64,000 nucleotides of DNA from Escherichia coli (lineage in GTDB: Bacteria; Pseudomonadota; Gammaproteobacteria; Enterobacterales; Enterobacteriaceae). Under the pieces are notes generated by a model. The model ran no database searches and had not been told where the DNA came from. It worked only from the letters and a program-made list of their open reading frames with translations. The position numbers and the translations under genes were made by a program. This document shows, in pieces, positions 31,002 to 53,117 of this stretch. Numbering within the stretch: position 1 is the stretch's first letter; each line of letters starts with the position of its first letter. Where the stretch lies: NCBI RefSeq assembly GCF_044324785.1, contig NZ_CP172127.1. The stretch is one strand, 5' to 3'.

Positions 31002-31910
31002 CTAATTCTGCTGTAAAAAGTGCAGAAACTGACTTAAAGCATAAGAAGGCGTTTCGTTATTGCGCCAGAACACACCGACGCTGCCTTTCTGTTCTATCTT
31101 TGGCAGGTTGAGGATCACCAGTTGTCCCTGGCTGGCATAACGTTGCGCCAGGCGTAATGACAAAATAGAGATCATATCGCTGCTTTGTAACAGGTTGGTA
31201 CTGACGTTCATCGACGCCGACTCAATCGTGTTTTCTGGCAGCATCACGCCGTGGTCTACCAGCGCATTATCAATACTGATGCGAATGGGGGTACCTGTCG
31301 GCCAGACTATCCACCGCCAGTTAGCAAGATCATTCCAGCTGAGGGTGGCGTATTTCGCCAGTGGATGCTCAGCACGGGCGACAAAACACACCGGCTCGGT
31401 GTAGAGCACCTTATAATTCAGTGGCAGCTGCAAGGCGCGACCGCCAATTCGCCCAACGACCACGTCGACAGAACCTGCCAATAGATCTTGCAGCAATGGG
31501 GTCATAACCTTCTCTTCAATATTCAGGTGTAGAGTTGGCATCTCCTTGAGCAAATGCAAAATCGCCTGGGATACGCAGTCAGTGGCGACGGGAGAACAGC
31601 CAATTTTCAGACTGCCGACCAGCCCACCTTGTTTAAAACGGGCCAGTTCATGTTGCGAGCGCTCCATGTCATTGATTAACCGCTGGGCATGTTGCAATAA
31701 CAATCTACCGCCTTCGGTAGGGCGTAACCCTTTGCTGTGCCGCTCAAAGAGTGTGAGGCCGATCTCATCTTCGAGTTGTGACAACCATTTCGACAGCGCA
31801 GGCTGGGTGATATTCATCATCCGCGCGACATGGGTCAGATTGCCCTGTTCACCCAGCGCCACCAGCATTTGCAGGTGATGAAGCTTTAGTTTCTGCGCCC
31901 AGTTTGCCAT
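31002..31910 (-). CDS. mhbR: LysR-family regulator of the gentisate cluster
   Basis: ATG at 31910 with SD tggagg gives 303 aa; HTH near the N-terminus; divergent from the catabolic operon. Confidence 0.75.
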   Translation of the reverse strand: MANWAQKLKLHHLQMLVALGEQGNLTHVARMMNITQPALSKWLSQLEDEIGLTLFERHSKGLRPTEGGRLLLQHAQRLINDMERSQHELARFKQGGLVGSLKIGCSPVATDCVSQAILHLLKEMPTLHLNIEEKVMTPLLQDLLAGSVDVVVGRIGGRALQLPLNYKVLYTEPVCFVARAEHPLAKYATLSWNDLANWRWIVWPTGTPIRISIDNALVDHGVMLPENTIESASMNVSTNLLQSSDMISILSLRLAQRYASQGQLVILNLPKIEQKGSVGVFWRNNETPSYALSQFLHFLQQN

Positions 31911-31915
31911 TTGCC

Positions 31916-31931
31916 ATAACCTCCAGGTTAT
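31916..31931. promoter_or_regulatory. Palindrome ATAACC-N4-GGTTAT (LysR-type box) overlapping the mhbR RBS
   Basis: Perfect 6+4+6 inverted repeat in the mhbR/mhbT divergent region. Confidence 0.4.
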
Positions 31932-32036
31932 CTCTCTGCCCGAAATGCCATTGTACATTTCATCTCTTTAATCACAATATCGCAACATACATAAAACAAA
32001 AGAAACATCTACCTTACCTGCACTGAGGCATTTACT

Positions 32037-33395
32037 ATGACTCAACGACGTGATTTACAAGCACTGATCGATGCTGCTCCGGTCGGCAAGATGCAGTGGC
32101 GCGTTATCATCTGCTGTTTTCTGGTGGTAATGCTCGATGGTTTTGACACCGCGGCTATCGGCTTTATCGCCCCTGATATTCGCACTCACTGGCAACTCAC
32201 CGCAGGCGATCTCGCCCCGCTTTTTGGCGCGGGTCTGCTGGGGTTAACCGCAGGCGCACTGCTTTGTGGTCCGTTGTCCGATCGCTTTGGCCGCAAACGT
32301 GTGATTGAGCTGTGCGTCTTTTTGTTTGGCGCGTTAAGCCTCGCCTCGGCTTTCTCACCGGATCTGCAAACGCTGGTATTCCTGCGTTTCCTCACCGGCC
32401 TTGGGCTGGGTGGCGCGATGCCAAACACAATTACCATGACCTCGGAATATCTGCCTGCCCGCCGCCGCGGCGCGCTGGTGACGCTGATGTTTTGCGGCTT
32501 TACCCTGGGTTCGGCGTTTGGCGGGATTGTCAGCGCGCAGCTGGTGCCGGTGATTGGCTGGCACGGGATCCTGGTGTTGGGTGGCGTATTACCGCTGATG
32601 CTGTTTGTTGCACTGCTGGTGGTTCTGCCGGAATCGCCACGCTGGCAGGTGCGCCGCCAGCTACCCCAGGCGGTGATTGCGAAAACCGTCAGCGCCATCA
32701 CCCGCGAGCGTTATGTCGATACCCACTTTTATCTCATTGAATCAGCCTCCGTTACAAAAGGCAGCATTCGTCAACTGTTTATGGGGCGTCAGTTACCCAT
32801 CACGTTGATGCTGTGGGTGGTGTTCTTTATGAGCTTGCTGATTATTTACCTGCTCTCAAGCTGGATGCCAACGCTGCTCAACCATCGCGGCATCGACCTG
32901 CAACATGCCTCCTGGGTTACCGCCGCGTTCCAGATTGGCGGTACGTTGGGCGCGCTGGCGCTGGGCGTGCTGATGGATAAGTTCAATCCTTTCCGCGTAC
33001 TGGCGCTGAGCTATGCCATAGGCGCTGTATGCATCGTGATGATTGGCTTAAGCCAGGACGGATTATGGCTAATGGCGCTGGCGATTTTCGGCACCGGCAT
33101 TGGCATCAGCGGATCGCAGGTGGGGCTGAATGCGCTGACCGCAACACTTTATCCAACACAAAGTCGCGCCACGGGCGTGAGCTGGTCAAACGCCGTGGGC
33201 CGCTGCGGCGCGATTGTTGGCTCGCTGTCTGGCGGCGTGATGATGGCGATGAATTTCTCTTTCGACACCCTGTTTTTCATTATCGCTGTGCCCGCGGCGA
33301 TCAGTGCGGTGATGTTAACCCTGCTGATCACCGTGGTTCGCCAGTCGACCTCTGTCCCTGACTCACTGCCTCACGCAGGTGTTGTGAACGAATAA
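32037..33395 (+). CDS. mhbT: MFS aromatic acid:H+ symporter (3-hydroxybenzoate transporter-like)
   Basis: 452 aa 12-TM MFS protein, first gene of the catabolic operon. Confidence 0.75.
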
Positions 33396-33406
33396 GGAGC
33401 ATCCCA

Positions 33407-34435
33407 ATGACTGATAACAATCAAAATAGCCGCGAGCAATTTTATCAGCATATTTCCGGGCAAAACCTGACCCCGCTGTGGGAGTCACTGCACCATCTGG
33501 TGCCAAAAACGCCCAACGCTAACTGTGCGCCAGCGTACTGGAATTATCAGGAGATCCGCCCGCTGCTGCTGGAGAGCGGCAGCCTGATTGGCGCGAAAGA
33601 AGCCGTGCGCCGCGTGCTGGTGCTGGAAAACCCGGCGCTGCGCGGGCAGTCTTCCATCACCGCGACTTTATATGCCGGTTTGCAACTGATCATGCCGGGC
33701 GAAGTGGCACCGAGTCATCGCCATAACCAGTCGGCGCTGCGTTTTATTGTTGAAGGTAAAGGGGCATTCACCGCCGTTGATGGCGAACGCACGCCAATGA
33801 ATGAGGGCGATTTTATCCTGACCCCGCAGTGGCGCTGGCACGATCACGGTAACCCTGGCGACGAACCGGTTATCTGGCTCGATGGGCTGGATCTGCCATT
33901 AGTGAACACTCTGGGCTGCGGTTTTGCCGAAGATTACCCGGAGGAGCAACAACCAGTAACGCGTAAAGAGGGCGATTACCTGCCGCGTTACGCTGCCAAT
34001 ATGTTGCCGCTGTGCCATCAGACCGGGAACTCCTCGCCCATCTTTAACTACCGTTATGACCGTAGCCGCGAAGTGCTACACGATTTAACCCGCCTGGGCG
34101 ATGCCGATGAGTGGGATGGCTACAAAATGCGCTACGTCAACCCGGTCACCGGTGGCTATCCGATGCCGTCGATGGGCGCTTTCCTGCAACTGCTGCCGAA
34201 AGGGTTTGCCTCACGCGTGGCGCGTACCACTGACAGCACCATCTACCATGTGGTGGAAGGTAGCGGGCAGGTCACTATCGGCAATGAAACCTTCAGCTTT
34301 AGTGCAAAAGATATCTTCGTGGTGCCGACCTGGCACGGCGTGTCGTTCCAGACCACGCAAGATACCGTTTTATTTAGTTTTTCGGACAGACCGGTACAAG
34401 AAGCCCTGGGGCTGTTCCGCGAAGCGCGTTATTAA
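33407..34435 (+). CDS. mhbD: Gentisate 1,2-dioxygenase (bicupin)
   Basis: 342 aa; cupin His motifs ([19 protein letters not shown]). Confidence 0.8.
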
Positions 34436-34450
34436 TTTGGGAGAGAGAAA

Positions 34451-35152
34451 ATGACTCAATACGTATTCGAACCACAAGCGCCCGTTACCGTACCGGTTGT
34501 TGGCAGTGATGAACAATTCCCCGTACGCCGCGTTTACTGCGTCGGACGTAACTATGCCGCCCACGCCCGCGAAATGGGCTTTGATCCGGATCGTGAACCG
34601 CCATTCTTCTTCTGCAAACCGGCGGATGCCGTTGTTCCGGTTGCCGCTGGCGAAACGCTGGCGCTGCCGTATCCGGCGCAGACCGATAACTACCATTATG
34701 AAATTGAACTGGTGGTGGCGATTGGTAAAAAAGGCAGTGATATCCCGCTGGAAAACGCCCATGAATATGTCTGGGGTTATGCCACGGGTCTTGATATGAC
34801 TCGCCGTGACCGTCAAATGGAAATGCGCCAGATGGGCCGCCCGTGGGAAATCGGCAAAGCGTTCGATCTCTCGGCCCCCATCGCGCCGCTGCACAAAGCC
34901 AGCGAAACTGGCGGTATTGATAACGCACCTATCTGGTTACAGGTTAACGGCGAAGATCATCAGCGCAGCGATATTCGTCATCTCATCTGGTCAGTGAATG
35001 AAACCATCAGCTACCTGTCAGGCTTCTTTGAGCTGCAACCGGGCGATCTAATCTTTACCGGTACGCCGGAAGGGGTTGGCCCAGTAGTCAAAGGTGATGT
35101 GATCACGGGCAACGTCGAGGGCTTAACGCCTATCGCGGTGAAGATTGTCTGA
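34451..35152 (+). CDS. mhbH: Fumarylpyruvate hydrolase (FAH family)
   Basis: 233 aa FAH-fold protein. Confidence 0.7.
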
Positions 35153-35804
35153 GGTGATGATGAAGCTGTACAGTTTTTTTAATAGTTCAGCGTCTTACCG
35201 GGTGCGCATTGCGCTGGCGCTGAAGGGTATCGATTACCAGACCGAAGGGGTGAATATCCGCATTGGTCAGCAAAACGAACTGGCCTACCGGCGGATGAAT
35301 CCGGTCGGGCTGGTGCCGACGCTGCTGACCGACGAGGGCGAATCACTCGGACAATCGCTGGCGATTATTGACTGGCTGGAGAGTCACTACCCGCAAGTTC
35401 CGCTGATGCCGCAGGAAGAACCGGCCCGCAACAAGGTGCTGGAAATTGTCTATGCCATCGCCTGCGATATTCATCCATTGAATAACCTACGCGTGCTGCG
35501 CTACCTGACCGAAGAGCTGAACGTCAGTGAAGAAGATAAAAAACGCTGGTATGCGCACTGGATCCAGCAAGGGTTAAGCGCGGTGGAACAGCTACTGCGC
35601 CAGAGCCAGTCGGGGCAATTTTGTGTGGGCGAGACGCCGACGCTGGCAGATTGCTGCCTTGTTCCACAGTGGGCGAACGCGCTACGTATGAACTGCGATC
35701 TGAGCGGGTATCCGCGCTGCAAAGCGGTGTACGACGCCTGCACGCAGCTGCCAGCGTTCATTGCCGCAGCGCCAGAAAATCAACAAGATAAAATTTCAGC
35801 CTGA
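35145..35804 (+). CDS. mhbI: Maleylpyruvate isomerase (GST zeta-like); start codon uncertain (TTG 35145, ATG 35157 or 35160)
   Basis: GST N-terminal thioredoxin fold ([23 protein letters not shown]). Confidence 0.7.
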
Positions 35805-35818
35805 CCAGGAGAACCATA

Positions 35819-37012
35819 ATGACTAAAGTGACACGCGCAGTAATTGTGGGAGGCGGGATCGGCGGTGCGGCAACTGCGTTGTCACTGGCCCGCCAGGGGA
35901 TCAAAGTGGTGCTGCTGGAAAAGGCGCATGAGATCGGTGAGATTGGCGCAGGTATCCAGTTGGGGCCAAATGCGTTTTCGGCGTTGGATAGCCTCGGCGT
36001 CGGCGAAATCGCCCGCCAGCGCGCGGTATTCACCGATCACATCACCATGATGGATGCGGTAAACGCCGAAGAAGTGGTGCGCATTGAAACCGGTCAGGCC
36101 TTTCGCGATCATTTCGGCGGCCCTTACGCGGTGATCCACCGGGTTGATATTCACGCCTCGGTGTGGGAAGCGGTACTGACGCATCCGGACGTGGAATATC
36201 ACACCTCCACCAACGTCGTGGATATTCGCGAGACAGAAGACGATGTCACCGTTTTCGACGATCGCGGCAATAGTTGGATCGGCGATATTCTGATTGGCTG
36301 TGACGGCGTGAAGTCAGTGGTGCGCCAGAGCTTATTGGGCGATGCGCCGCGTGTCACCGGGCATGTGGTCTACCGTGCGGTTATCGATTGTGCCGATATG
36401 CCGGAAGATTTGCGCATTAACGCACCAGTACTGTGGGCGGGGCCGTGCTGTCACTTGGTGCATTACCCTTTACGCGGCGGCAAGCAGTATAACCTGGTGG
36501 TGACATTCCACAGCCGCCAGCAGGAAGAGTGGGGCGTGAAGGATGGCAGTAAAGAGGAAGTGCTCTCTTACTTTGAAGGGATTCACCCCCGTCCGCGCCA
36601 GATGCTGGATAAACCGACCTCCTGGCGACGCTGGTCAACCGCCGACCGTGAACCGGTAGCGAAGTGGGGAACGAAGCGCATTACGCTGGTGGGCGATGCG
36701 GCCCATCCGGTGGCGCAGTATATGGCGCAGGGTGCCTGTATGGCGCTGGAAGACGCGGTAACACTGGGTAAGGCGCTGGCGCAGTGTGAGGGTGATGCGG
36801 CACAAGCCTTTGCGCTGTATGAGTCGGTACGTATTCCGCGCACCGCGCGCATCGTCTGGTCGACCCGTGAAATGGGGCGGGTTTATCATGCCGCAGGAGT
36901 AGAGCGCCAGGTACGTAACCTGTTGTGGAAAGGGAAATCGCAGGCAGAGTTTTACCGCGGCATGGAGTGGCTGTACGGCTGGAAAGAAGATAACTGTTTG
37001 CAACCACGCTGA
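35819..37012 (+). CDS. mhbM: 3-hydroxybenzoate 6-monooxygenase (FAD-dependent aromatic hydroxylase)
   Basis: 397 aa; Rossmann [19 protein letters not shown] and DG..S.VR flavoprotein hydroxylase motifs. Confidence 0.8.
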
Positions 37013-37073: not shown

Positions 37074-38021
37074 ATGCGTGTGTTACTGGCTCCGATGGAG
37101 GGTGTGCTTGACTCTCTGGTGCGTGAATTGCTGACCGAAGTTAACGACTACGATCTGTGCATCACCGAGTTTGTCCGCGTGGTGGATCAACTGCTGCCGG
37201 TAAAAGTCTTTCATCGCATTTGCCCTGAGCTACAAAACGCCAGCCGGACACCATCCGGTACGCTGGTGCGCGTGCAGTTGTTAGGTCAGTTCCCACAATG
37301 GCTGGCAGAGAATGCCGCCCGTGCGGTCGAGTTAGGTTCCTGGGGCGTGGATCTCAATTGCGGCTGCCCGTCGAAAACGGTTAACGGTAGCGGCGGTGGG
37401 GCGACGTTACTCAAAGATCCTGAACTCATCTATCAGGGTGCAAAAGCGATGCGCGAAGCTGTACCGGCGCATTTGCCCGTAAGCGTAAAAGTGCGTCTGG
37501 GCTGGGACAGCGGTGAGAAGAAATTTGAAATCGCCGATGCGGTGCAACAGGCTGGCGCTACGGAGCTGGTGGTGCATGGGCGGACAAAAGAGCAGGGTTA
37601 CCGCGCGGAGCATATTGACTGGCAGGCGATTGGCGAGATTCGCCAGCGGCTGAATATTCCGGTGATTGCCAACGGTGAAATCTGGGACTGGCAGAGTGCG
37701 CAACAATGCATGGCGATCAGCGGCTGTGACGCAGTGATGATTGGTCGCGGGGCGCTCAATATTCCCAACCTGAGCCGGGTGGTAAAATATAACGAACCGC
37801 GAATGCCGTGGCCGGAGGTGGTTGCTTTGCTGCAAAAATATACCCGTCTGGAAAAGCAGGGCGATACCGGGTTATATCACGTTGCGCGGATTAAACAGTG
37901 GTTGAGTTATTTGCGTAAAGAATACGATGAAGCAACGGAATTATTTCAGCATGTTCGGGTGTTGAATAATTCCCCTGATATTGCAAGGGCTATTCAGGCA
38001 ATTGATATCGAGAAACTCTAA
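37074..38021 (+). CDS. dusC: tRNA-dihydrouridine synthase C
   Basis: ATG at 37074 gives 315 aa ([10 protein letters not shown]...); LNCGCPSK active-site motif; the ORF-track frame begins at an upstream TTG. Confidence 0.9.
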
Positions 38022-38040
38022 AAAACCATAGTGATGTTTT

Positions 38041-38067
38041 TTGACAATGTGTTAGCTCTTTATCAAT
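38041..38067 (+). promoter_or_regulatory. sigma70-like promoter in the IS left end (TTGACA -35, TATCAAT -10 region)
   Basis: Perfect -35 hexamer 20 bp after the dusC stop; the spacer is only 14-15 bp (shorter than the 17-bp optimum). Confidence 0.3.
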
Positions 38068-38069
38068 AG

Positions 38070-38250
38070 GCCGCACGGTTGTTTGGTGGCGTCAAAATCG
38101 CCGAGGCGTTCCCTGAAGGCCGGGGCAGCCCACATGGATGTGGGCTGAGGGCGCGTTTTACAGGGATAATGAGATGGACGCTCCAGATTTTACGGTATCA
38201 AAGTACCAGACTGGATCGTTGCAATACGTCCTGAAAAATTAGGAGCGTCC
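38070..38250 (+). ncRNA. Candidate structured ncRNA (bridge/guide-RNA-like) in the IS110 left end; speculative
   Basis: Downstream of the promoter-like motif; contains a 9-bp stem hairpin cagcccaca-tgga-tgtgggctg (38126-38147) and an inverted 10-mer. Confidence 0.25.
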
Positions 38251-38252
38251 AC

Positions 38253-39278
38253 ATGAAAGTATCAACTCTTGGTATCGACCTGGCAAAGAACGTTTTTCAG
38301 CTTCATGGTGTCGATCATGAAGGCCATACTATTTTGCGTAAAAAACTCACCCGGGCTAAGTTTGTTCAGTTTGTGATTCAACTGGAACCTTGTCTGATTG
38401 GCATGGAAGCCTGCTCATCCAGTCATTATTTTGCGCGATTATTCACCCGCTATGGTCATGAGGTAAAACTCATACCTCCGCAGTATGTGAAGCCTTATGT
38501 GAAAACGAACAAGACGGATGCAGCAGATGCTGAAGCAATCTGCGAAGCGGTAACCCGTCCGAATATGCGTTTTGTTCAGATAAAAACCGAAGAGCAGCAG
38601 GCCGTTTTAGCGTTACACACTGAACGGGGAATACTTATCCGTGAGCGGATTGCCTGTGCCAATAGTTTAAGAGCCACACTTGCTGAGTTTGGTATTACGA
38701 TTGCGGCCGGACAAAGCCATTTAACCCGTGAGCTGCCAGCCATTCTGGAGGATGGCGAAAATGGTTTATCTCCCTTTGTCAGAACCAGCATCTACAGACA
38801 GTCTAAACATATCCGGGAACTTGAAGAACAAGTTAAACAGGTAGAAGAAGCTCTGGCCTCCTGGTATAGAACGCAGGAAGCCTGCCAGAGAATGGCCAAA
38901 ATCCCGGGGGTTGGCATGCTAACGGCCACTTATGTGGTAGCAGCAGTGGGTAATGCCCGACAATTCAGTACCGCAAAGCAGTTCGCTTCATGGCTGGGGC
39001 TGACACCAAAGGAACATTCCAGCGGCGGGAAACAGCAACTGGGAGGGATCAGCAAACGTGGAGATGGATATTTCCGATACCTGCTGGTTCACGGCGCACG
39101 CGCACTTACCGCCTGGGTCAACCGAAACGGCGCGGTTGAGGAGAATTCCTGGCTTCAGGGACTCCTTGAGCGGAAGCACTACAATGTAGCTGTTGTCGCC
39201 ATGGCGGCAAAAACAGCGAGGATCATGTGGTCAATGTTGTCACACAATACTGAATATCAACCTCGGCAGCTCGCCTGA
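38253..39278 (+). CDS. IS110-family transposase/recombinase (DEDD RuvC-like N-domain plus C-terminal Tnp domain)
   Basis: 341 aa; N-terminal LGIDLAKN, GMEACSS, TDAADAEA motifs; C-terminal GLTPKEHSSGGK...GISKRGDGYFR; SD aggag. Confidence 0.85.
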   Translation: MKVSTLGIDLAKNVFQLHGVDHEGHTILRKKLTRAKFVQFVIQLEPCLIGMEACSSSHYFARLFTRYGHEVKLIPPQYVKPYVKTNKTDAADAEAICEAVTRPNMRFVQIKTEEQQAVLALHTERGILIRERIACANSLRATLAEFGITIAAGQSHLTRELPAILEDGENGLSPFVRTSIYRQSKHIRELEEQVKQVEEALASWYRTQEACQRMAKIPGVGMLTATYVVAAVGNARQFSTAKQFASWLGLTPKEHSSGGKQQLGGISKRGDGYFRYLLVHGARALTAWVNRNGAVEENSWLQGLLERKHYNVAVVAMAAKTARIMWSMLSHNTEYQPRQLA

Positions 39279-39638
39279 CACAAGGTCAGTCAATCTGACG
39301 AGGTGCTGAAAAAAAGTTAACGTCCTGGTAGGTGCAGGTGACTTCAGAAGATGGCAAAACAGGTAAGACCGCAGGCAGGATACACCGAGAGGTAACAAGG
39401 GCAAGTTAGCCCGTAGAGGATGATTGGTACCTGCCTGGCGGATTTCATCATGGTTCGGGATAAAAATCCCATCAGAAACCGGATATATGGCTGCACCTAC
39501 CCGTTTTATTACATAACTGAAGAAAGCATTGCATTCCGGGAGCGTCCATATATGTTACCTCGCGCCCGACCCGGTAGCCGTAAGGGATAAGCCGAGGGCA
39601 CCGCGCAGCGGCGATTTTGTTCGCCAGAGCCCGGGGGT

Positions 39639-39670
39639 GCAGGGGGCGGCGGCGATTGGCCGCCCCCTGC
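39639..39670. repeat. GC-rich perfect 12-bp-stem palindrome (gcagggggcggc-N8-gccgccccctgc)
   Basis: Read directly; no flanking U-tract; possibly a REP/BoxC-like host element or IS-associated structure. Confidence 0.5.
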
Positions 39671-39779
39671 GCGCTCCTTGCGCCAGTGATTATATGAAGC
39701 AATGCACATGACAGGAGCGCAACAGGATGAGAGACTGAAATATTCTCGTTATTTTCGGATCTGATGACATTAATTAATT

Positions 39780-39863
39780 TTAAAATATCATCTTAAATAC
39801 GCCAGTCACCACCAGTAGCCCAATCAGGAAAATAATCAATACAGCCCAGAGTATAATTTTCAT
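39780..39863 (-). CDS. yohP: Small (27 aa) single-TM membrane protein
   Basis: Hand translation of the minus strand: MKIILWAVLIIFLIGLLVVTGVFKMIF-stop; below the 60-aa ORF-track cutoff; matches my recollection of K-12 YohP. Confidence 0.75.
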   Translation of the reverse strand: MKIILWAVLIIFLIGLLVVTGVFKMIF

Positions 39864-40086
39864 TGGCGTTCCTTTATTTGTGAGTGCTGAATAAGTATAG
39901 GAAAAAACGAAGTCCTTTGCCGTTATCCATAAACGATTAAGATAAATCGGAAGATATCATTCACTTAGTGTATATTTTTCTGGATATGTCATATTATTGC
40001 CACTGATGTTTTGCCACGCGAAACTAAAAAATATATCGCAACACACGGTAATCTCCGCGCACCTTTTCTTACCTGATTATTCCCCC

Positions 40087-41523
40087 ATGAATCGTGATTC
40101 CTTTTATCCCGCCATCGCCTGTTTTCCGCTGTTACTGATGCTGGCCGGGTGTGCGCCTATGCATGAAACCCGCCAGGCGTTAAGCCAGCAAACGCCTGCT
40201 GCACAAGTTGACACCGCATTACCCACGGCGCTGAAAAATGGTTGGCCAGACAGCCAATGGTGGCTGGAGTATCACGATAATCAGCTCACTTCCTTAATTA
40301 ACAATGCACTACAGAACGCACCGGATATGCAGGTGGCTGAACAGCGCATTCAGCTAGCTGAAGCCCAGGCGAAGGCAGTTGCTACTCAGGATGGTCCGCA
40401 GATCGACTTTTCTGCGGATATGGAGCGGCAAAAAATGTCGGCAGAAGGGTTAATGGGGCCGTTTGCTCTGAACGATCCTGCCGCAGGTACGACCGGTCCG
40501 TGGTACACCAACGGTACTTTTGGCTTAACGGCGGGCTGGCATCTCGATATCTGGGGAAAGAATCGGGCGGAGGTAACTGCTCGCCTGGGTACGGTTAAAG
40601 CACGAGCGGCGGAACGCGAGCAAACCCGCCAATTGCTGGCTGGCAGCGTAGCCCGCCTGTACTGGGAGTGGCAAACCCAGGCGGCGTTAAACACTGTCTT
40701 ACAGCAAATCGAAAAAGAGCAGAACACCATTATCGCCACCGATCGCCAGCTATATCAGAACGGGATTACTTCTTCAGTTGAAGGTGTGGAAACCGATATT
40801 AATGCCAGCAAAACCCGGCAGCAGCTCAACGATGTCGCGGGGAAAATGAAAATTATTGAGGCACGGTTAAGCGCACTTACAAATCACCAGACAAAGTCAC
40901 TGAAGCTTAAACCGGTCGCGTTGCCGAAAGTGGCAAGCCAGCTTCCTGATGAACTGGGGTACTCCTTACTGGCGCGGCGGGCAGATTTGCAGGCGGCGCA
41001 CTGGTACGTTGAGTCATCGTTAAGCACCATTGATGCGGCAAAAGCGGCATTTTATCCTGACATCAACCTGATGGCCTTCCTGCAACAGGATGCGTTGCAC
41101 TTAAGCGATCTGTTCCGTCATTCCGCGCAGCAAATGGGCGTTACGGCAGGCCTGACGCTACCCATTTTCGATAGTGGTCGTCTTAACGCCAATCTCGATA
41201 TCGCAAAAGCCGAAAGCAACTTGTCTATCGCCAGCTACAACAAAGCGGTGGTTGAAGCGGTGAATGACGTGGCGCGGGCAGCCAGTCAGGTTCAGACACT
41301 GGCGGAGAAAAACCAGCATCAGGCGCAAATTGAGCGCGATGCCTTGCGTGTAGTTGGTCTTGCGCAGGCGCGCTTTAACGCGGGCATCATTGCCGGTTCC
41401 CGCGTCAGCGAAGCCAGAATCCCGGCGCTTCGCGAGCGGGCCAATGGCCTGTTATTGCAAGGGCAGTGGCTGGATGCCTCCATTCAACTCACTGGTGCGT
41501 TGGGCGGGGGTTACAAACGCTGA
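40087..41523 (+). CDS. mdtQ: Outer-membrane efflux lipoprotein (OMF/NodT family), apparently intact
   Basis: ATG at 40087 gives 478 aa with lipobox LLMLAGC; uninterrupted frame. Confidence 0.8.
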   Translation: MNRDSFYPAIACFPLLLMLAGCAPMHETRQALSQQTPAAQVDTALPTALKNGWPDSQWWLEYHDNQLTSLINNALQNAPDMQVAEQRIQLAEAQAKAVATQDGPQIDFSADMERQKMSAEGLMGPFALNDPAAGTTGPWYTNGTFGLTAGWHLDIWGKNRAEVTARLGTVKARAAEREQTRQLLAGSVARLYWEWQTQAALNTVLQQIEKEQNTIIATDRQLYQNGITSSVEGVETDINASKTRQQLNDVAGKMKIIEARLSALTNHQTKSLKLKPVALPKVASQLPDELGYSLLARRADLQAAHWYVESSLSTIDAAKAAFYPDINLMAFLQQDALHLSDLFRHSAQQMGVTAGLTLPIFDSGRLNANLDIAKAESNLSIASYNKAVVEAVNDVARAASQVQTLAEKNQHQAQIERDALRVVGLAQARFNAGIIAGSRVSEARIPALRERANGLLLQGQWLDASIQLTGALGGGYKR

Positions 41524-52297: not shown

Positions 52298-53029
52298 ATG
52301 AAGATGTTGCGCGATCCGCTGTTCTGGCTCATTGCTTTGTTTGTGGCACTGATTTTCTGGCTGCCTTACAGCCAGCCGCTGTTTGCTGCCTTGTTCCCAC
52401 AACTGCCACGACCCGTTTATCAGCAGGAAAGCTTTGCAGCTCTGGCACTGGCTCATTTCTGGCTGGTGGGAATTTCGAGTTTGTTTGCGGTGATCATTGG
52501 CACTGGTGCAGGAATTATTGTTACTCGCCCGTGGGGCGCGGAATTTCGCCCACTGGTGGAAACTATTGCCGCCGTTGGGCAGACTTTTCCGCCCGTCGCG
52601 GTGCTGGCGATTGCCGTTCCGGTGATTGGGTTTGGTCTGCAACCCGCGATTATCGCCTTGATCCTTTACGGTGTGCTGCCCGTCCTACAGGCGACACTTG
52701 CCGGGCTGGGAGCGATTGATGCCAGCGTGACAGAAGTTGCGAAAGGTATGGGAATGAGTCGAGGTCAGCGACTGCGTAAGGTCGAGCTACCGCTGGCGGC
52801 TCCGGTGATTCTGGCGGGCGTGCGAACTTCGGTGATTATCAACATTGGTACGGCGACGATCGCCTCAACGGTAGGGGCCAGCACGCTGGGTATGCCCATC
52901 ATCATCGGGCTTAGCGGATTTAATACCGCGTATGTGATCCAGGGGGCGTTACTGGTGGCACTGGCGGCGATCATTGCAGACCGCCTGTTTGAAAGGCTGG
53001 TGCAGGCGCTTAGCCAGCACGCAAAATAA
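52298..53029 (+). CDS. yehW: ABC transporter permease
   Basis: 243 aa polytopic permease. Confidence 0.88.
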
Positions 53030-53117
53030 AGGTATAACCTGCGAGCATGACGCCACCAATTCCGCCTAACGCCATAAACAGGAACAGGGCGATGACCCCA
53101 ATTTTAGCTATGCGCAT
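53010..53117 (-). CDS. yohO: Small (35 aa) single-TM membrane protein, convergently overlapping the yehW 3' end by 20 nt
   Basis: Hand translation: [35 protein letters not shown]-stop; below the ORF-track cutoff; symbol from memory of K-12 small proteins. Confidence 0.6.

Follow-up and report, generated by a model that had tools for sequence, protein, structure and literature searches.

YohP of Escherichia coli resembles YncL, YkgR, YshB and YohO in being a stress-induced protein of fewer than 50 residues with a single transmembrane helix that classical annotation missed. These proteins are unrelated to YohP in sequence and are placed in separate curated families (NF010225 for YohO), and some of their properties recur: YncL also depolarises the membrane and condenses the nucleoid, and YkgR also cross-links to SRP (PMC7549839, PMC12542507). 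YohP itself sits in the inner membrane, is recognised by SRP and is inserted post-translationally; its dimers are SDS-resistant and need Gly15, and an IGLLVVTGV motif has been described (PMC7549839). Its transcript has a route of its own, in that the U-rich yohP coding sequence suffices, with no need for the UTRs, to direct the mRNA to the membrane, and the mRNA arrives there without being translated (PMC10066597).

Natively tagged YohP increases in stationary phase, in minimal medium and under oxygen limitation, and its production makes the membrane less fluid, reduces the membrane potential, switches on the Psp response, induces (p)ppGpp and reduces metabolic enzymes, a state called "metabolic silencing" in which the depolarisation is sublethal; deletion of yohP leads to greater sensitivity to ciprofloxacin and oxidative stress (PMC12719787). 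Nucleoid condensation and interference with magainin-2 oligomerisation have been described as well (PMC12542507). As its authors state, the physiological model derives mainly from premature, plasmid-driven expression of YohP; endogenous levels in stationary phase are high and are tolerated (PMC12719787). The Salmonella Typhimurium orthologue, known as STnc1330, is translated, induced in stationary phase and dependent on RpoS, with a sigma-S-type -10 element: STnc1330 yields YohP-3xFLAG in abundance in stationary phase, and hardly any can be detected in a delta-rpoS strain (PMC5437024).

The type I toxins TisB and HokB have no sequence relation to YohP; like it, they are small hydrophobic peptides that lower the pmf and promote a dormant, tolerant state. 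The YohP papers themselves compare the protein with depolarising type I toxins (PMC12719787).

Here we analysed a 64,000-nucleotide stretch of E. coli DNA (the window), in which an earlier note, made from the sequence alone, had recognised a 27-aa membrane protein gene, yohP, in the vicinity of an insertion sequence (IS). We are highly confident that the open reading frame at 39780..39863 is bona fide yohP, with a predicted sigma-S-type promoter and encoding a membrane peptide, and that the IS most likely has no effect on it. Sequence identity, family membership, synteny, coding constraint, promoter-motif conservation and the IS junctions were established in the present analysis; translation, localisation, regulation and physiology of YohP are known from the literature.

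The yohP reading frame and its neighbourhood

Read on the minus strand, positions 39780..39863 comprise 27 codons and a TAA stop (ATG AAA ATT ATA ... TTT TAA) and encode MKIILWAVLIIFLIGLLVVTGVFKMIF, exactly the peptide that had been translated by hand in the earlier note. The frame is also present in a mechanical ORF list, and RefSeq annotates it as yohP. A Shine-Dalgarno sequence, AAGGA, can be read on the same strand at 39870..39874, 6 nt 5' of the ATG. A length of 27 codons is not remarkable by itself, because the segment 37000-42500 alone is overlapped by 104 ORFs of 20 aa or more. Of the ORFs of 20-50 aa that begin with ATG in the 64-kb window, 321 in all, this frame is the most hydrophobic, with a best 19-mer Kyte-Doolittle value of 2.96 (z = 3.4). 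The peptide contains a single hydrophobic helix between Lys2 and Lys24, and Gly15 lies within the IGLLVVTGV motif.

In an ungapped comparison with the K-12 derivative MC1061, all 84 nucleotides of the coding sequence are identical, as are all 27 residues of the protein. A homologue was looked for at the corresponding position of K-12 and was found there: in MG1655, yohP (b4679, "putative membrane protein YohP") sits between the mdtQ pseudogene and dusC. The K-12 protein (YP_002791249.1 / WP_000691708.1) and the one described here thus agree in protein, coding sequence, position between mdtQ and dusC, Shine-Dalgarno sequence and the segment from the -10 element to the ATG. The loci differ at four intergenic SNPs and one SNP in the 3' flank, and in the IS, which lies 228 bp downstream of yohP here and is missing from K-12. 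Both curated models recognise the peptide over its full length: the NCBIfam equivalog NF011345 (PRK14762) at 67.3 bits (cut-off 58, E = 7.7e-19, 27/27 profile positions) and Pfam PF25659 (YohP) at 50.6 bits (gathering threshold 27, residues 1-27). A search of PDB sequences with YohP returned no relative, that is, no solved structure of a related sequence.

The gene is nearly universal in the species. A 401-bp segment around yohP was found in 5423 of 5426 complete E. coli genomes, and the matches listed for it carry the annotation "small membrane protein YohP"; one variant protein, I10F, occurs in strain ARL09/232. Annotation is missing from some RefSeq genomes, such as NZ_CP040390.1 (E. coli A1_136), where the match lists dusC and mdtQ without yohP. 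The gene described here is thus an already known, experimentally characterised one, present as the K-12 allele. The reading proposed in the earlier note was borne out in its main points: the identification as yohP agrees with the K-12 comparison, the synteny and both family models, the identical K-12 protein is known from experiment to be a single-helix small membrane protein (PMC7549839), and a frame of 27 codons, below the 60-aa threshold of the ORF track, is a real gene.

On its 5' side, yohP is divergent from mdtQ (40087..41523, plus strand), which is an intact ORF of 478 codons here. Many E. coli genomes likewise have an intact mdtQ, which a frameshift has made a pseudogene in K-12 MG1655 and MC1061. 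On the 3' side, beyond the IS, lies the convergent gene dusC (37074..38021, plus strand), known from both the ORF list and RefSeq. Between yohJ and dusC, at about 31002-37012, the window carries a 3-hydroxybenzoate/gentisate catabolic cluster that is absent from K-12, with genes for a LysR regulator, mhbT, gtdA, a fumarylacetoacetate hydrolase family gene, maiA and 3-hydroxybenzoate 6-monooxygenase; these designations follow the matching RefSeq annotation of two loci, one of them in E. coli MS 21-1. A second small membrane protein gene below the 60-aa threshold, yohO, is found at 53010-53117 on the minus strand; it has a Shine-Dalgarno sequence, and its 35-aa product matches NCBIfam NF010225 at 80.1 bits (cut-off 57).

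The insertion sequence and the dispersed repeat downstream of yohP

The IS occupies 38168..39551 (plus strand, 1384 bp). Its borders follow from the unoccupied K-12 site, to which the window corresponds on the left as far as 38167 and on the right again from 39552. An AT dinucleotide is common to both junctions, and the net insertion relative to K-12 is 1386 bp. The element carries a DEDD transposase/recombinase gene of 341 aa at 38253..39278 on the plus strand, convergent with yohP, whose product matches PF01548, PF02371 and NF033542 (359 bits, cut-off 140). The IS110 family named in the earlier note is therefore the right one, and the element does lie 3' of yohP. Since the transposase gene is on the opposite strand and the IS is 3' of yohP, transcription of yohP heads for the right end of the IS, as the note had also stated. 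Its description of yohP as next to the IS holds in the sense of nearby and not of adjacent, because 228 bp separate the stop codon from the right end of the IS at 39551.

In elements of the IS1111 group the LE is short, the RE is long, and inverted repeats of 7-17 bp lie sub-terminally (PMC11208160). Here the LE measures 85 bp and the RE 273 bp, and inverted repeats of 11 bp, ATGGACGCTCC and GGAGCGTCCAT, lie at 38174-38184 and 39539-39549. A DEDD transposase and strict site-specificity in a repeat are further properties of that group that recur here. The IS was found in 179 of 5426 E. coli genomes, with a median of 2 copies, and at the yohP locus in 95 genomes. In seven of seven other copies examined, at the loci dusC-yohP (strain N3), yegH-asmA, yegH-relE-fragment and ybaP-copA, it is inserted at the identical point, with GCGTTTTACAGGGAT immediately to its left and ATGTTACCTCG immediately to its right. 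Judged by these sequence features, the element is a site-specific IS1111-group IS with the dispersed repeat described below as its apparent target.

For IS1111-group elements, a guide RNA transcribed from the RE in the direction of the element end is expected (PMC11208160). Several short segments of the RE here match the target or the donor. The 9-nt sequence GAGGTAACA (39389-39397) is the exact complement of the right flank of the target, where about 0.07 such 9-mers would be expected by chance on our own estimate; a 7-nt segment, CGTTTTA (39502-39508), matches the left flank of the target; and another, TATATGG (39484-39490), is complementary to the circular RE-LE donor junction. These segments are candidates for the guide portions of a bridge or seek RNA. 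In the MFE fold of the RE, GAGGUAACA is unpaired in an internal loop; the fold itself is not significant (z = -1.7). An Rfam scan of 38000-40200 at E <= 1 returned only AgvB and mir-611, and both were rejected as chance matches (AgvB at 22.9 bits, gathering threshold 56).

The insertion splits a dispersed repeat, about 270 bp long and unannotated, into a left-hand part (38083..38167) and a right-hand part (39554..39739), which makes up the distal portion of the 3' flank of yohP. Proximal to it, a unique stretch of about 40 nt (39740..39779, minus strand) follows the stop codon; its border with the repeat was placed by means of the inverted copy in strain N3 and of paralogous copies, and it differs from K-12 by one SNP at 39760. 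Of 5426 genomes, 5425 contain the repeat, and the median number of places that it occupies in a genome is 3. An identity with the RSA element was considered for it and not adopted. As RNA, the part proximal to yohP is strongly structured (z = -3.99), and a perfect 12-bp G+C hairpin lies within the repeat at 39639-39670, without a U-tract; a terminator scan of 39450-40150 identified no canonical intrinsic terminator 3' of yohP, so the transcript might extend as far as the IS.

The repeat and the IS vary in arrangement among E. coli strains. In strain N3, the whole repeat together with the IS is inverted between yohP and dusC, at 90% identity. The opposite orientation of the IS in N3 had been considered as a second target site or a palindromic target, and this was rejected, the whole repeat of about 270 bp being inverted. 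In E. coli MS 21-1, SCU-172, MSB1_4I and others, dusC, the IS and the right repeat half are followed by aqpZ-ybjD and not by yohP-mdtQ, the change falling at about position 39730 of the window. The joining of aqpZ-ybjD at this point implies a large chromosomal rearrangement with its breakpoint in the repeat or the IS. On the K-12 map, the yohP and aqpZ loci presumably lie roughly symmetrically about the terminus. The repeat and the IS thus constitute a polymorphic rearrangement point beside yohP.

An insertion in such a position might alter yohP expression, either because the split repeat changes the 3' end or stability of the mRNA or through antisense read-out from the right end of the IS. 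The transposase strand converges on yohP, the structured repeat that is split forms the distal 3' flank of the gene, there is no U-tract terminator between yohP and the IS, and the guide RNA of an IS1111-group element would be directed from the RE toward the element end (PMC11208160). Against this, the 228 bp from the stop codon to the IS remain in place, including the 12-bp G+C hairpin, and the proximal 3' flank is unchanged except for its single SNP. The UTRs are also dispensable for targeting of the yohP mRNA (PMC10066597). The sole promoter-like match antisense to yohP (39764-39791, plus strand) was rejected as evidence of an antisense RNA, as one match was found where 1.6 were expected by chance. 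Moreover, natural lineages carry the repeat in either orientation, or have a different locus joined to it, and this speaks against any dependence of yohP on the distal flank. Since this variation points to a yohP that can bear changes in the distal part of its 3' flank, we rate an effect of the IS as unlikely, and we infer that the insertion is neutral for yohP in this strain.

A related idea concerns the repeat and not the IS as such: if the repeat serves as the distal 3' UTR or terminator of yohP, its states in different lineages (forward, inverted, IS-split or recombined) might set the level of YohP. We consider this improbable.

Coding constraint and control of yohP across genera

Homologues were collected with a degenerate DNA pattern covering codons 1-12 of yohP only, in one genome per species. 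The scan returned 26 loci in six genera (Escherichia, Citrobacter, Atlantibacter, Enterobacter, Cedecea and Buttiauxella), a set which, being chosen by its N-terminal 12 codons, under-samples divergent homologues. Salmonella and Klebsiella yohP were not recovered by this codon 1-12 pattern; that the Salmonella gene was missed means that it differs within the first 12 codons.

The ORF is exactly 27 codons long at all 26 loci. In codons 13-27, to which the pattern did not extend, amino-acid variation is confined to two positions (L13I and M25A). Across 18 distinct non-Escherichia coding sequences, pS in these codons is 0.49-0.99, near saturation, and pN does not exceed 0.06; codons 13-27 are unchanged in the two distinct Escherichia coding sequences. 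Variable columns are distributed 4/1/13 over the first, second and third codon positions, and the stop at codon 28 may be TAA, TAG or TGA. On this pattern of substitution, yohP evolves as a protein-coding sequence, under what we read as purifying selection on its amino acids, with its length kept.

The surroundings of the gene behave differently. Between genera the flanks are nearly unalignable, with an ungapped identity of about 0.3-0.45 upstream and about 0.25 downstream. Despite these diverged surroundings, a purine-rich Shine-Dalgarno sequence (AGGA, GGAG or GGGA) is kept at the same position in 26/26 loci. Gene order is shared by part of the set, as dusC together with yohF or mdtQ flanks yohP in Escherichia, Citrobacter and Atlantibacter, and conservation of the yohP gene organisation has been reported (PMC12719787). 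At eight homologue loci of Enterobacter, Cedecea and Buttiauxella, the fetched flanks contained no dusC, mdtQ or yohF, several of these loci being short; yohP may there have a different context, or these may be paralogues. Two of the homologue records are both labelled Buttiauxella agrestis.

Upstream of yohP, the intergenic region shared with mdtQ (39864..40086) measures 223 bp and separates two divergent genes, as the earlier note had described. The note had also called this promoter region untouched. That is correct in that an ungapped comparison with MC1061 found no insertion; the region is not identical to K-12, from which it differs by four SNPs, at 40010, 39993, 39991 and 39913. From the -10 element (39900-39894) as far as the ATG there is no difference from K-12.

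That element, a predicted sigma-S-type extended -10 on the minus strand (39894..39900), has the sequence CTATACT, i.e. TATACT with a C at -13, and was identified by its conservation across genera. An octamer, CCTATACT, is invariant in 27/27 sequences from the six genera; it lies in the midst of DNA that has diverged, with its end 30-39 nt upstream of the ATG. A TATACT -10 element preceded by C, without a recognisable -35 element, is the classical signature of sigma-S. The same signature is restated in the study of Salmonella STnc1330 (PMC5437024), whose sigma-S-type -10 element is matched by the CTATACT found here. A sigma-70 promoter scan of 39450-40150 did not call the yohP promoter, as would be expected when no -35 element matches; since that scan made no call, the assignment rests on conservation and on the Salmonella genetics. 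We infer that yohP is driven by a compact sigma-S-type promoter in this strain, with its transcription start site near 39886-39888, which would leave a 5' UTR of about 25 nt.

yohP might also be regarded as the toxin of a module of the type I toxin-antitoxin kind, repressed by an antisense RNA. YohP is small and hydrophobic; its over-production depolarises the membrane and retards growth, and a link to persister-like dormancy has been drawn by the authors of that work (PMC12719787, PMC12542507). Nevertheless, we regard a toxin role as very unlikely. Neither a conserved antisense promoter nor an sRNA was detected at yohP in the promoter scan of 39450-40150 and the Rfam scan of 38000-40200, and the flanks are not conserved across genera (about 25% ungapped identity 3' of the stop codon). 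In contrast to TisB and HokB, YohP is not known to have an antitoxin RNA and none is detectable here, its depolarisation is sublethal, and its control would be exerted by a sigma-S promoter and not by an antitoxin. Its high endogenous level in stationary phase is tolerated (PMC12719787).

That the locus is primarily a non-coding sRNA with an incidental ORF, as might be supposed from the short, membrane-localised transcript that needs no translation (PMC10066597) and from the first cataloguing of the Salmonella orthologue as the sRNA STnc1330 (PMC5437024), is hardly tenable given the protein-like substitution (low pN against high pS, third-position variation, a fixed 27 codons, three stops), the detection of tagged and untagged YohP protein in E. 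coli and Salmonella (PMC7549839, PMC12719787, PMC5437024), and the lack of any Rfam family match in the scan of 38000-40200, a dual RNA/protein function being likewise without support.

Working model and meaning

Taken together, we read this locus as yohP, a probably sigma-S-controlled gene for a membrane peptide, with the following course of events. The conserved CTATACT -10 element (39900-39894) would give rise to a short, leadered yohP mRNA, and initiation at AAGGA-ATG would yield the 27-residue peptide, with its one transmembrane helix, its Lys2 and Lys24 flanks and Gly15 in the middle of the helix. As for the identical K-12 protein, YohP would be recognised by SRP and inserted post-translationally into the inner membrane, and the U-rich mRNA would also be able to reach the membrane by itself. 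There, YohP would form dimers that depend on Gly15; once produced, it would partly dissipate the membrane potential and thereby elicit the phage-shock and stringent responses. This depolarisation would lead in turn to nucleoid condensation and reduced protein synthesis, the "metabolic silencing" of the published model. The IS110-family element would have arrived independently, by sequence-targeted insertion into the dispersed repeat, most likely with no effect on yohP.

With respect to the biology of YohP, this analysis adds nothing new, as the gene, its product, its regulation and the working model were already published. yohP serves here as a positive control: a studied gene of 27 codons, under the 60-aa threshold, was correctly recognised from its sequence. 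Some by-products may be mildly useful, namely the sigma-S-type -10 element conserved across genera, the site-specific IS1111-group element on a dispersed repeat, and the rearrangement point beside yohP at which this repeat and the IS are polymorphic. Should the state of that repeat set the level of YohP after all, improbable as we consider this, it would lead to differences among E. coli lineages in stationary-phase depolarisation and antibiotic tolerance.
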